This document shows, one piece after another, positions 1-2,310 of a stretch of 64,000 bases of DNA. The notes beneath the pieces are model-generated. The model ran no database searches. It was not told where the DNA came from and saw nothing but the letters and a program-made list of their open reading frames with translations. The DNA is taken from assembly GCA_017634065.1 (NCBI GenBank), contig JAGBOC010000011.1:60412-124411 (forward strand). Reading direction: 5' to 3'. The stretch's first letter is position 1, and every line of letters starts with the position of its first letter. The translations under genes and the position numbers were made by a program. This DNA is from Lachnospiraceae bacterium (lineage in GTDB: Bacteria > Bacillota > Clostridia > Lachnospirales > Lachnospiraceae).

Positions 1-2310
1 GCTCTTAAGATGCATGTACATCCTTCTATATCAACAGATGAAAATATAAAAAACTTTGAAAGACAGCTTAAGCAAATATCTGCAATTTATGATTGGGATA
101 TGGAACTAAAAACTACAGATCCAGATTATTATAGATGGACACAGTGGATATTTGTAAAACTTTTTGAAAAAGGTCTTGCATATGAAAAAGAGTTTCCAAT
201 AAATTGGTGTCCAAGTTGTAAGACAGGACTTTCAAATGAAGATGTCGTAGATGGGTGCTGTGAAAGATGTGGAACACCTGTTACTAAAAAGAACTTAAGA
301 CAGTGGATGCTTAAGATTACAGATTATGCAGAGAGATTATTAAATGATCTTGACAAACTTGATTGGCCAGAGAAAGTAAAAAAAATGCAGACGGAGTGGA
401 TTGGCAAATCATATGGCGCAGAAGTTGATTTTGAAATCGCAGATGAAGTTGCGAGTAAAACCGTAGGGGCGAGCAAAGCCGTAGGGGCGAGCAAAACCGT
501 AGGGGCGAGCACTGCGAGCCCTAACATCGTAGAGGCGAACAAAACTGTAGTAGCGAGTGAATCAGTAGGGGCGAGCACTGCGAGCCCTAGTAAAAATAAA
601 ATTACTGTCTACACCACTCGCCCTGACACTTTGTATGGTGCTACATTTATGGTACTTGCACCAGAACATGACCTTGCGATGAAACTTGCGACAGATGATA
701 AAAGAGCAGAAGTTGAAAATTATATAAAGACTGCATCGATGAAAACTAATGTAGACAGGATGCAAGTTTCAGATAAAGATAAAACTGGTGTATGGACTGG
801 AAGATATGCTATAAATCCATTAAATGGTAAAAAGATTCCTATATGGATTTCTGATTATGTATTAAATGATTATGGAACAGGTGCCATAATGTGTGTCCCA
901 GCTCACGACACAAGAGACTTTGCATTTGCAAAAAAGTTTAATCTTGATATTGTACCAGTTATCGCTCCAAAAGATGATATACATAAGTTTGATAATGGTA
1001 TGGATGAAGCATTTGTATCAACTGATGGTATAGTTATTAACTCAGGCGAATGGGATGGAAGAGTATCAAGTGAATTAAAGAAAAATGCGCCTGATGAATT
1101 AGAAAAGAAAGGCATAGGAAAGAAAACTGTAAATTATAAAATAAGAGATTGGGTTTTCTCAAGACAGAGATATTGGGGAGAGCCTATACCTATAGTTCAT
1201 TGCCCTAAATGTGGAAATGTCGCAGTGCCAGTAGAAGAACTTCCGCTAAAACTTCCAGATGTAAAATCTTATGAACCATCGGGAACAGGGGAGTCTCCAC
1301 TTGTAAATATCACTGATTGGGTAAATTGCAAATGTCCAAAGTGTGGTGGCGATGCAAAAAGAGAAACAAATACTATGCCACAGTGGGCAGGTTCATCTTG
1401 GTATTTCCTTCGGTATATAGATGTACATAATGATAAGGCTCTTGTCGACAAAGAAAAGGCTGACAAATATCTTCCAGTAGATATGTATATTGGTGGAGTT
1501 GAACATGCTGTTCTTCATCTTTTGTATTCAAGATTTTGGACAAAGTTTTTATATGATATAGGTGCTATAGGTTTTGATGAGCCATTTCATAAATTATTCA
1601 ATCAAGGAATGATACTTGGACCTAAAGGTGTCAAGATGAGTAAGTCGCTTGGCAATGTAGTTAATCCTGATGAGATGGTTGATAATTATGGATGTGATAC
1701 ACTTCGTATGTATGAACTCTTTATAGGACCTCCAGATATGGATGCAGCATGGGATGATAGAGGCATAGAAGGAGTATATAAATATCTTAATAGACTTTAC
1801 AATTTAGTTGAAAAAAATGTAAATGAAAATAGAGAAGCAACTAAAGAATGTCTATACATAAGACATAATCTTATAAAAGCTGTGACTGATAGGCTTGAGA
1901 AGTTTTCGCTTAATACAGTCATCTCTGGTTTTATGGAGTATACGAACTCACTTATAGAGCTTGATAGAAAAGAAGGCTATATTGACAAAGAGACATTAAA
2001 AACTATCGCTGTCTTATTATCGCCATTTGCACCACATGTAGCTGAAGAGTTTTATCATATGTTAGGTGGAAATGGCACTGTATTTGAAGCAGGTTGGCCA
2101 AAGTTTGATGAGAACCTCGCAAAAGCTGATACAGTGAAACTTCCTATACAGGTAAATGGCAAGACAAGAGGTTTCGTAGAAGTAGATGCAGGAGCTGATG
2201 AAAAAGAAGTTATTAATAAAGCAAAAGAAACCATAAAAGAAAAACTTACCGGTGACATAGTTAAAGAAATCTATGTAAAAGGAAAAATTATTAACTTTGT
2301 CGTGAAATAG
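1..2310 (+). CDS. leuS: Leucyl-tRNA synthetase, 5' end outside window; carries an in-frame repeat-derived insertion
   Basis: Frame 1 is open from base 1. Class I LeuRS blocks present: '[19 protein letters not shown]', '[19 protein letters not shown]', 'VKMSKSLGN' (KMSKS). The usual N-terminal ~120 aa are missing. Confidence 0.96.
   Translation, partial: [769 protein letters not shown]
451..589 (+). repeat. In-frame array of GTAG-type GC-rich repeat units inside leuS
   Basis: GTAG units start at 463, 481, 499, 529, 547 and 565 (spacings 18, 18, 30, 18, 18 nt, all multiples of 3). Full copies 'gtaggggcgagcactgcgagccc' at 499 and 565. Translated as '[20 protein letters not shown]...VGASTASP'. 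Confidence 0.9.

Follow-up and report, generated by a model that had tools for sequence, protein, structure and literature searches.

How does a short repeat that otherwise lies between genes come to be read as part of leucyl-tRNA synthetase (LeuRS), and what, if anything, does the resulting peptide do there? The question arises from a 64-kb stretch of Lachnospiraceae DNA (64,000 nucleotides, hereafter the window) that begins within leuS. An earlier note on this DNA had claimed that about 46 extra residues in LeuRS are encoded by the same GTAG element that is found in intergenic regions, and that this element had entered the gene, expanded in place, and been tolerated by the enzyme. The analysis described here bears these claims out. 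In our view the insert is REP-type selfish DNA that sits in a permissive loop, has grown by slippage, and is translated into a flexible passenger peptide, a reading to which we assign a probability of roughly 80%. The features of the gene on which the argument depends are the following, in window coordinates:

1..2310, plus strand: leuS (leucine--tRNA ligase), from its ORF, Pfam domains and PDB match; 5' end cut by the window start
324..578, minus strand: antisense ORF of 84 aa, entirely within the conserved leuS frame
436..591, plus strand: polymorphic segment, 156 nt versus 12 nt (GTAGAAAATGAA) in a conspecific empty allele (blastn against contig L001)
445..462, plus strand: decayed half unit GAAGTTGCGAGTAAAACC, 14/18 matches to GTAGGGGCGAGCAAAACC, encoding EVASKT (direct reading of the sequence)
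463..498, plus strand: two 18-nt half units, GTAGGGGCGAGC+AAAGCC followed by GTAGGGGCGAGC+AAAACC, encoding VGASKA and VGASKT
499..521, plus strand: complete 23-nt element GTAGGGGCGAGCACTGCGAGCCC, 23/23 to the clade consensus, encoding VGASTASP (hairpin fold)
522..528, plus strand: spacer after the complete element
529..564, plus strand: two decayed half units, GTAGAGGCGAACAAAACT and GTAGTAGCGAGTGAATCA, encoding VEANKT and VVASES
565..587, plus strand: second complete 23-nt element, 23/23, encoding VGASTASP

The host gene encodes a recognizable LeuRS. Its ORF in the window contains the Pfam domains PF13603 (editing domain), PF00133 (tRNA-synt_1), and PF08264 (Anticodon_1), and matches a LeuRS in the PDB at E = 3e-208; the complete protein of the window type (P0001) has 855 residues. 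The motifs HVGH, KMSKS, and TTRPDT, which are invariant across our LeuRS alignment, are intact in the window protein and the reading frame is uninterrupted, in keeping with the proposed tolerance of the insert. The earlier note also called leuS essential, which is an assumption. When the window protein is aligned with Thermus thermophilus LeuRS, its residues 147 and 200 correspond to residues 237 and 242 of the latter, leaving ~48 extra residues, close to the number first proposed, in place of the four-residue turn 238-241. This position is the β-hairpin turn where the CP1 editing domain begins, about eight residues ahead of the editing motif TTRPDT. An AlphaFold2 model, for which 28 sequences of close relatives were aligned, is of low overall quality (mean pLDDT 62, pTM 0.44) and was used only locally, for the insert, which it places between strands 225-232 and 286-291, without secondary structure and with a pLDDT of ~26. 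The turn is a candidate surface site.

An intein or a self-splicing intron was considered and rejected, as Pfam detects LeuRS domains only in the window ORF and the insert has no Rfam match at the gathering threshold. At that threshold, the only Rfam family found in the entire window is tRNA-Sec, and a search of positions 380-660 at E ≤ 1 gave only a chance match to snoZ157, with 24.5 bits against a gathering score of 55. None of the RNA-marked sequencing runs searched for the stretch contained it, and two runs of unknown kind were returned. Conservation of the reading frame, which is the evidence bearing on this point, suggests that the insert is translated. The antisense ORF at 324..578 exists as first listed, but is most probably a spurious by-product and no gene, since it lies inside the conserved leuS frame and the element is free of stop codons in all three antisense frames.

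Internally, the array has a regular architecture. GTAG cores start at positions 463, 481, 499, 529, 547, and 565, which confirms the originally reported spacings of 18, 18, 30, 18, and 18 nt, and a seventh, decayed unit is present at 445-462. Positions 529-564 together with 565-594 form a second copy of the 66-nt block 463-528. TRF accordingly reports a period of 18 at 451-511 and a higher-order period of 66 at 462-589 (1.9 copies, 83% matches). The GC content is 0.58 within the array and ~0.33 in the surroundings.

That the array is an insertion follows from comparison with close relatives. The conspecific contig L001 is 98.9-99.3% identical to the window over 12 kb, and carries 12 nt where the window has 156, so that the net gain at 436-591 is 144 nt or 48 codons. 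The same empty allele was assembled in run X16, and more than 100 other Lachnospiraceae LeuRS have a loop of 8-14 residues at this position. The insert is thus in frame, missing from a close orthologue (99% nucleotide identity), and accompanied by intact host motifs, as for the palindromic elements of Rickettsia discussed below. The comparison of strains called for by the earlier note also revealed variation in unit number: run X8 lacks one 66-nt block (exactly 499-564), run X13 has one additional 18-nt unit, and runs X1, X2, X5, and X7 carry the window-length allele. The stretch 250-800 was found without difference in contigs of two runs, and an allele of the same length with SNPs in runs from two further studies. 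Across runs, the length alleles are therefore −156+12, −66, 0, and +18 nt relative to the window, and the frame is kept in all of them. The array is a coding minisatellite (VNTR) of strain-variable unit number, and the 18-nt half units, the 66-nt higher-order repeat, and the alleles that differ by these lengths all support expansion in situ. A phase-variable contingency locus was rejected, because every observed length change is a multiple of 3. The codons beside the insert also differ between alleles, reading EIAD...SKNKIT in the filled and EVENEKNIIT in the empty form. As the filled allele is not simply the empty allele plus an insert, recombination, and not transposition in this lineage, may have brought it in.

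The proposed identity of the insert with an intergenic element is likewise supported by the remainder of the window, where copies of the same element lie between genes. Allowing up to two mismatches, GTAGGGGCGAGC occurs 14 times in the window, always on the plus strand, whereas shuffled sequences contain 0.48 occurrences on average and none of 100 reached 14. The element occupies eight loci in the 64 kb, of which the seven outside leuS are intergenic:

4221..4243, plus strand: intergenic copy, variant GGGT...ACCC, between a VanW-domain gene and tpiA (names taken from the syntenic locus L001), followed by GAAAGGAAAGAATATG
16336..16460, plus strand: intergenic array of period 27 (TRF), ending in a partial element and then ...CCCGAAAGGAAAATATG
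20152..20253, plus strand: intergenic array of four units, period 26-27 (not a multiple of 3)
27877..27899, plus strand: intergenic single copy, 22/23
38699..38775, plus strand: composite element (fold), GTAG plus a basal stem GGGC-GA-GCAC...GTGC-GA-GCCC with ~55 nt inside
60802..60970, plus strand: two intergenic copies, 60802-60824 and 60948-60970

Beyond the window, the exact 23-mer GTAGGGGCGAGCACTGCGAGCCC is present in at least 105 stretches from rumen Lachnospiraceae and other Bacillota MAGs. In RNA folding calculations, the 23-nt unit forms GGGC-GA-GC-(3 nt)-GC-GA-GCCC with a GA/AG internal loop at −8 to −11 kcal/mol, although the Z-scores relative to shuffled sequences are modest (−1.5 to −2.1). 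There is covariation between positions 8 and 20 (CG 137, TG 13, TA 11, CA 5; Fisher p = 1.5e-7), and in every copy an unpaired GTAG immediately precedes the stem on its 5' side. The element is therefore a short imperfect palindrome with an unpaired GTAG end and dispersed, mostly intergenic copies, and in these respects matches a REP. A CRISPR array was rejected, because the unit spacing is irregular (18 to 118 nt) and the spacer length is not constant. Between co-directional genes, 68 copies are in the sense and 11 in the antisense orientation. In contrast to classical REPs and REPINs, the element occurs mostly as direct repeats that run in the direction of transcription, and this co-orientation could reflect selection at the RNA level instead of purely selfish spread.

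A candidate for the mobilizing enzyme is found in related MAGs. A protein of 144 residues in L081 and one of 146 residues in L035 match Pfam Y1_Tnp with 27.4 and 27.1 bits (cut-off 23) and NCBIfam REP_Tyr_transpos (NF047646) with 65.4 and 61 bits, below the curated cut-off of 80. An HLH (HUH) motif is present in both, as is the tyrosine of FYERVIRD. The RAYT-like genes of L081 and L068 are each preceded on the 5' side by sense copies of the element and followed on the 3' side by inverted copies, as in a REPtron. A RAYT gene was sought within the 64-kb window and none was found. The element may be mobilized by such a transposase.

Entry into coding sequence is not peculiar to leuS. Related genomes contain 45 sense copies within 31 genes of at least 300 residues, the size class to which our intragenic census was restricted, and recG, mnmG, mnmA, and hisS are among the at least 31 other genes with an in-frame element. 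Pfam domains span the insert in RecG, MnmG, MnmA, a HisS-type synthetase, NAD(P)H-hydrate dehydratase, and sugar dehydratases. In sense arrays, the spacing between neighboring units is a multiple of 3 in 23/24 cases inside genes compared to 25/76 between genes, and no intragenic sense copy is read in the frame that contains TAG. A crude count of antisense intragenic copies gives 48, mostly in short ORFs created by the arrays themselves; when only genes of at least 300 residues are considered, six copies in three genes remain.

The same LeuRS turn is occupied in sister species, where the element is found in two reading frames (VGASTASP or CRGEHCEP) and in numbers from 0 to ~5 units. A single unit is present in L003, where it is read in the VGAS frame, and in each of L002 and L113, where the frame is CRGE/RRGE; L115 has four units. 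An inverted variant, ARETRAYD, lies beside direct units in L005 and L115, and the composite element seen at 38699..38775 is translated within the LeuRS of the relative P0154, where the loop reads ERRDEHAPERLCRSVATECDKVPLGREPE. L002, L112, and L113 carry three different alleles despite being 98.7-99.3% identical, and the LeuRS tree requires at least 11 changes of state. No shared target motif was found in the empty alleles, as GTAG is present at the site in L001, but not in L112 and L114.

Taken together, these observations suggest the following model. A REP-type repeat, consisting of an unpaired GTAG and a 19-nt imperfect GC-rich hairpin (GGGC-GA-GC-loop-GC-GA-GCCC), is dispersed between genes in this clade of rumen Lachnospiraceae and, in related genomes, is found on both sides of RAYT-like HUH/Y1 transposase genes. 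One copy would have entered, or been recombined into, the first β-hairpin turn of the CP1 editing domain of LeuRS. As two of the three sense frames of the element are free of stop codons, it can be read through as VGASTASP, a small peptide rich in Gly, Ala, and Ser that is probably disordered. Slipped-strand mispairing or unequal recombination between 12-nt cores may then have generated an array of 18-nt half units and full elements, and have duplicated the 66-nt block. Only changes in multiples of three survive, and the outcome is a strain-variable coding minisatellite. Slippage is the likely mode of array growth.

Several other explanations must be weighed against this model. An assembly artefact or chimera, in which an intergenic repeat was misjoined into leuS, would agree with the poor performance of short reads in assembling repeats and with the obvious internal duplications in the LeuRS entries P0002, P0004, and P0009. 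We give it next to no weight, since assemblies of runs from at least five studies contain this array or versions of it that differ in length but stay in frame, related alleles are found in dozens of independent metagenome proteins, and the frame is kept in every case. Just as negligible is the idea that the extra segment represents an ancestral, lineage-specific LeuRS insertion, homologous across taxa, rather than repeat DNA. While extra residues do occur at the same turn in several sister species, the DNA behind them is the exact intergenic 23-mer, read in two different frames, empty alleles are present within each species, and the turn is short both in the more than 100 other Lachnospiraceae LeuRS and in solved structures. 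It is also very improbable that this leuS is a decaying pseudogene with a second copy doing the work, given the intact 855-residue ORF with all class I and editing motifs conserved, a synteny equal to that of the empty allele, and the preservation of frame in all observed length changes.

A far more serious contender, which we consider a genuine possibility while leaning against it, is that the array was imported. A leuS patch already bearing the element would then have been acquired by homologous recombination from a related species or strain, or be an old trans-species polymorphism, with slippage subsequently altering the unit number. The flanks in the window (FEIAD..., ...SKNKIT) do resemble those of filled alleles from sister species (FEIAN...NNKIT or TKNKIT) and not the conspecific empty sequence FEVENEKNIIT, the differences from L001 cluster in ~20 nt to the right of the array, outside of which the gene is 99% identical, and filled and empty alleles are interleaved inside species-level clades. 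However, alleles in frames 1 and 2 with different flanks require at least two independent entries, and the 23-mer is identical (23/23) where leuS itself is only 80-87% identical, which fits recent entry or homogenization better than old shared ancestry. Import concerns the arrival of the array only, and is compatible with the remainder of our model. A different matter is whether the insert is useful, either as an array of GC-rich hairpins in the mRNA that pauses ribosomes where the catalytic domain adjoins the editing domain or affects mRNA stability, or as a protein loop, flexible and variable, close to the editing pocket. Such a role might be read from the strong co-orientation of the element with transcription, the occupation of the same turn in several species, the higher conservation of the element compared to neighboring synonymous sites, and the position eight residues before TTRPDT. 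We nevertheless regard it as unlikely, because the insert is wholly absent from conspecific strains, its length, frame, and sequence vary freely among alleles (VGAS, CRGE, and composite), the same element occurs at unrelated places in at least 31 other genes, and the peptide is of low complexity and predicted to be disordered. Most likely, the selfish repeat in leuS encodes a tolerated passenger peptide with no part in aminoacylation or editing, and its presence is presumably neutral.

Selfish palindromes in coding sequence have a precedent in the Rickettsia palindromic elements (RPE), reportedly described by Ogata and co-workers in Science in 2000. Like the element studied here, RPE lie in frame in conserved, often essential genes, and both would be tolerated because they land in surface segments. 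RPE-1 differs in being 100-150 nt long, in usually occurring once per gene, and in belonging to an alphaproteobacterial intracellular parasite; to our knowledge, neither tandem half-unit arrays nor strain-level copy-number variation of the present kind have been described for RPE. A further parallel is offered by the MIRU-type intergenic minisatellites of Mycobacterium, said to have been reported by Supply and co-workers in 1997, which also form direct tandem arrays of variable unit number, lie in operons co-oriented with transcription, and adjoin stop and start codons. In contrast to our element, they are 40-100 nt long, are not GTAG hairpins, have no link to a transposase, and are confined to the space between genes. 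The REPIN/RAYT systems, on which Nunvar and co-workers reportedly published in 2010, share with the present system the combination of a GTAG-type REP and a single-domain HUH/Y1 transposase gene between inverted REPs. REPINs are inverted pairs of REPs, whereas the units described here are mostly single or in direct arrays, and the RAYT-like proteins found here score below the NCBIfam cut-off. REPIN/RAYT systems have been studied in Pseudomonas and E. coli, and Group 1 RAYTs have been reported from Clostridia as well (Bertels & Rainey 2011, PMC3116915; Bertels et al. 2017, PMC5581495).

The closest known counterpart is the family of GTAG-tagged REPs, for which intragenic copies have already been described, some of them in tRNA synthetases, with grouped intragenic REPs encoding 43-82 residues (Di Nocera, De Gregorio & Rocco 2013, BMC Genomics 14:522, PMC3733652). 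As here, these REPs are imperfect palindromes of 20-40 nt with an unpaired GTAG at one end, have a high copy number, and are mostly intergenic, with a minority in frame in ORFs including tRNA synthetase genes; groups of copies encode tens of residues, and RAYT genes are flanked by repeats (REPtrons). The survey included no Firmicutes, the strings "Firmicutes" and "Clostridi" being absent from its text. The present element also differs in that its copies are mainly direct rather than inverted dimers and are co-oriented with transcription, that 5' half units close with one full element, and that one protein turn has been hit in two frames with several alleles per species. The leuS array thus exemplifies, within the Firmicutes, a phenomenon that is already known, and stands out by its host phylum and its variability.

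The range of in-frame selfish DNA of the REP/RPE type is thereby extended from Proteobacteria to gut and rumen Firmicutes, with candidate RAYT genes indicated. For annotation, low-complexity inserts, length-variable orthologues, and spurious antisense ORFs in MAGs can be traced to a single 23-nt element, and the leuS array provides a ready strain marker for metagenomes. The allelic series at the LeuRS turn, with 0 to ~48 extra residues in two frames and a composite form, constitutes a natural experiment showing that the CP1 editing domain tolerates disordered sequence eight residues from its threonine-rich editing motif. More tentatively, and at odds that we place just below even, a REP/RAYT system unlike the proteobacterial ones may be active at present in the rumen Lachnospiraceae clade, and possibly in other Bacillota, a system co-oriented with transcription, arranged in half-unit arrays, often located just ahead of ribosome-binding sites, and colonizing dozens of housekeeping genes, including those for two tRNA synthetases as well as recG, mnmG, and mnmA, with the same permissive turns hit repeatedly in either open frame. 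If so, such a system would generally drive polymorphism in protein length in these gut bacteria, and its insertions would form a natural map of the sites at which essential enzymes tolerate added sequence.

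The window opens within leuS: its first ORF matches the LeuRS editing domain, tRNA-synt_1 and Anticodon_1 in Pfam, and its best solved relative is Thermus thermophilus LeuRS (E = 3e-208). The full protein, P0001, has 855 aa. After GAEVDFEI the translated ORF carries the extra residues that the earlier note had described, and these number about 48, since residues 147 and 200 of the window's reading frame align with 237 and 242 of 1H3N. The GTAG cores in the gene start at 463, 481, 499, 529, 547 and 565, with the previously read spacings of 18, 18, 30, 18 and 18 nt, and are joined by one decayed unit.

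1..2310, + strand: leuS, 5' end cut off by the window start (Pfam and structure match)
445-462, + strand: additional decayed unit of the leuS array (sequence)

The array repeats every 18 nt and, at a higher order, every 66 nt across 462-589 (TRF), and its GC content peaks at 0.58 versus ~0.33 nearby. Its DNA is indeed the intergenic GTAG element, as had been claimed: the window contains the core (at most two mismatches) 14 times, on the + strand every time, compared with 0.48 in shuffles. The ORF at 324..578 opposite the array exists, but it was rightly called spurious; it is a by-product, because the element lacks stop codons in all three antisense frames.

A conspecific contig from another metagenome, L001, is syntenic with the window (98.9–99.3% identical over 12 kb) and has GTAGAAAATGAA (12 nt) in place of window positions 436-591 (156 nt), a net difference of 144 nt or 48 codons. 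An allelic series of the array was drawn from public sequencing runs:

X1 and X2: contigs equal to window 250-800 without any difference
X5 and X7 (other studies): length as in the window, SNPs present
X8: 18.8-kb contig with exactly one 66-nt block (499-564) missing
X13: one 18-nt unit gained after 474
X16: empty allele

Unit number thus varies between strains, from empty through 66 nt fewer and the window length to 18 nt more, and every length change among the run alleles is a multiple of three. These in-frame alleles from separate runs remove both alternatives named in the earlier note, an assembly artefact and a homologous segment in unrelated taxa, the latter also being countered by more than 100 other Lachnospiraceae with 8–14 residues at this place in LeuRS. 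The leuS array is a real, recent and polymorphic insertion.

The Pfam editing-domain match begins at window residue 197 (profile position 19), and by alignment the insert falls in the turn joining the first two strands of the CP1 editing domain. Eight residues separate the end of the insert from TTRPDT, a threonine-rich motif that lines the editing pocket in the E. coli and T. thermophilus enzymes; HVGH, KMSKS and TTRPDT are invariant across the LeuRS alignment. AlphaFold2 predicts no secondary structure for the insert (residues 236-283, pLDDT ~26) and places it between strands 225-232 and 286-291; the rest of the model is poor (mean pLDDT 62), which makes this a weak and local statement. Conservation of the reading frame is what suggests that the insert is translated.

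The full unit, GTAGGGGCGAGCACTGCGAGCCC, folds into a hairpin in which a 4-bp stem leads through a tandem GA/AG internal loop to a 2-bp stem capped by a 3-nt loop, leaving GTAG unpaired. Among copies matching a pattern with positions 8 and 20 left free, these positions read CG in 137, TG in 13, TA in 11 and CA in 5 (Fisher p = 1.5e-7), a covariation that is support rather than proof, since the copies share descent. An Rfam search of the window returned no family for the element. What defines the GTAG super-family of REPs is a GTAG that stays unpaired, with a short imperfect palindrome after it (PMC3733652). The window also holds a longer form:

38699-38775: composite element, GTAG and basal stem kept, ~55 nt inside

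This composite lies immediately 5' of a start codon and is also found translated within the LeuRS of a relative (P0154). Terminal element copies (4221-4259, 16434-16471 and 38750-38793) are followed by CCCGAAAGGA and, 4–8 nt on, a start codon, so the repeat tail may provide the next gene with its ribosome-binding site. A tRNA-Sec gene (18532-18620; Rfam, 50 bits) lies upstream of two ORFs, and a four-unit array of the element (20135-20264) fills the whole spacer between these ORFs.

The identical 23-mer recurs in the turn DNA of relatives' leuS genes, where it is read in frame 1 (VGAS) or frame 2 (CRGE/RRGE). The turns of these loci (L) and proteins (P) contain:

L003: one unit, giving VGASTASP
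L002 and L113: one unit with a one-base shift, giving CRGEHCEP or RRGEHCEPE
L004 and L115: two and four units, respectively
L006: a half unit, nothing more
P0146: a unit with an internal deletion (VGAS-P)
P0154: the composite element
L005 and L115: an inverted variant (ARETRAYD) adjoining direct units

This second, inverted REP variant, read (G)ARETRAYD or ARETRPYD, occurs at L005:1998-2126 and L115:1676-1861 in leuS and at L046 in mnmG; lying head-to-head with direct VGAN/VGAS units in coding sequence, it resembles a REPIN-type inverted dimer. The leuS genes of L002, L112 and L113 are 98.7–99.3% identical and have three different alleles, one of them empty, and within protein clusters at 90% identity LeuRS is between 807 and 855 aa long. 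On a protein tree built after masking the turn, at least 11 changes between states (empty, frame 1 or frame 2) are required, with frame-2 alleles confined to one species-level clade and interleaved there with empty ones. The turn is a hot spot for the element. Three metagenome LeuRS proteins (P0002, 928 aa; P0004, 904 aa; P0009, 530 aa) contain long, exact internal duplications of conserved blocks that look like assembly artefacts and are not related to the GTAG element.

Because the 23-mer is identical between lineages whose leuS genes are just 80–87% identical, it has been kept or renewed other than by ordinary descent; candidate causes of this sameness are a recent entry, gene conversion by copies elsewhere, and constraint. 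Arrival of the window array by recombination, rather than by insertion in its own lineage, is a live alternative, since the codons flanking it are like those of sister species' filled alleles and unlike those of the conspecific empty allele.

The colonisation extends well beyond leuS. In a census of 112 sequences (855 kb, a sample element-enriched through its collection), restricted to genes encoding 300 aa or more and to copies no closer than 50 aa to either end, 45 sense copies lie in 31 genes versus 6 antisense copies in 3 genes; of the sense copies, 33 are in the VGAS frame and 12 in the CRGE frame, and the TAG-containing frame is never used. Core spacing is a multiple of three in 23/24 sense arrays in genes versus 25/76 arrays between genes. 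A Pfam domain spans the insert in RecG (within DEAD), MnmG (within GIDA), MnmA, a HisS-type synthetase, NAD(P)H-hydrate dehydratase and sugar dehydratases; further copies fall within an RHS protein and within linker regions of acetolactate synthase and a Wzt transporter. Orthologous insertion sites recur across different MAGs in MnmG, MnmA and HisS, and leuS is one among many colonised genes. Antisense in-frame copies occur too, though rarely, as in a histidine kinase (L074:3776-5200, minus strand) whose HATPase_c domain contains a copy read GSQCSPL. Between co-directional genes, 68 elements are sense and 11 antisense.

Five loci, collected solely for containing the element, encode a small HUH/Y1 protein that passes the Pfam Y1_Tnp cut-off and has both an HLH motif and the FYERVIRD tyrosine; in NCBIfam its closest match is the REP-associated tyrosine transposase (RAYT; 65 and 61 bits, under the 80-bit cut-off). 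In L081 and L068 sense elements stand immediately 5' of the RAYT-like gene and inverted elements immediately 3', which is the layout of a REPtron:

L081:2200-3377: complete REPtron layout, uncultured Lachnospiraceae MAG SRR12081300_bin.40
L081:2560-2991, minus strand: RAYT-like gene, 144 aa
L068:6319-6846: frameshift-split RAYT-like gene, two tblastn pieces meeting at 6546

Before the L081 gene stand two half-unit modules that close with a full element; after it come seven inverted copies. That of L068, flanked by a sense copy at 6319 and inverted copies at 6787 and 6824, may represent a decaying REPtron or a sequencing error. No RAYT-like gene lies within the 64-kb window. The exact 23-mer is present in at least 105 stretches, from rumen Lachnospiraceae MAGs and from Acidaminococcales (L018, L029) and other Bacillota MAGs (L020, L030 and others of Bacillota Lab288P1bin55); together with a RAYT-like gene in L018, its presence outside Lachnospiraceae suggests that the family has spread horizontally or has many hosts.

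The likeliest course is that an element of REP type went into a permissive LeuRS turn; having two open sense frames out of three, it could be read through there. Its mobilisation would have fallen to a RAYT-like transposase that acts on single-stranded hairpins, a route already proposed for the REPs of proteobacteria. The 18-nt half units and the duplication of the 66-nt block would then have arisen when the 12-nt cores mispaired by strand slippage; half units ending in a full element also stand beside the L081 RAYT-like gene. The encoded peptide would be neutral, and selection would purge length changes other than multiples of three. The strong sense orientation is not accounted for by a selfish-DNA model alone, and one possible cause is strand-specific insertion together with a gene-strand bias, another RNA-level selection.

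The Rickettsia RPEs are the classic case of such in-gene repeats. Di Nocera et al. 2013 (PMC3733652) reported REPs lying within genes, among them those for tRNA synthetases in X. oryzae, E. litoralis and S. alaskensis, as well as clusters of repeats that encode 43–82 residues; Group 1 RAYTs have been reported in Clostridia (PMC5581495). The kind of phenomenon is therefore already known, and the leuS array is solidly supported as a case of it. What is new is the host, a rumen Lachnospiraceae (Firmicutes are unmentioned in the REP papers compared), together with direct half-unit arrays oriented with transcription, a hot spot used in two reading frames, and a strain-level allelic series documented at one site.
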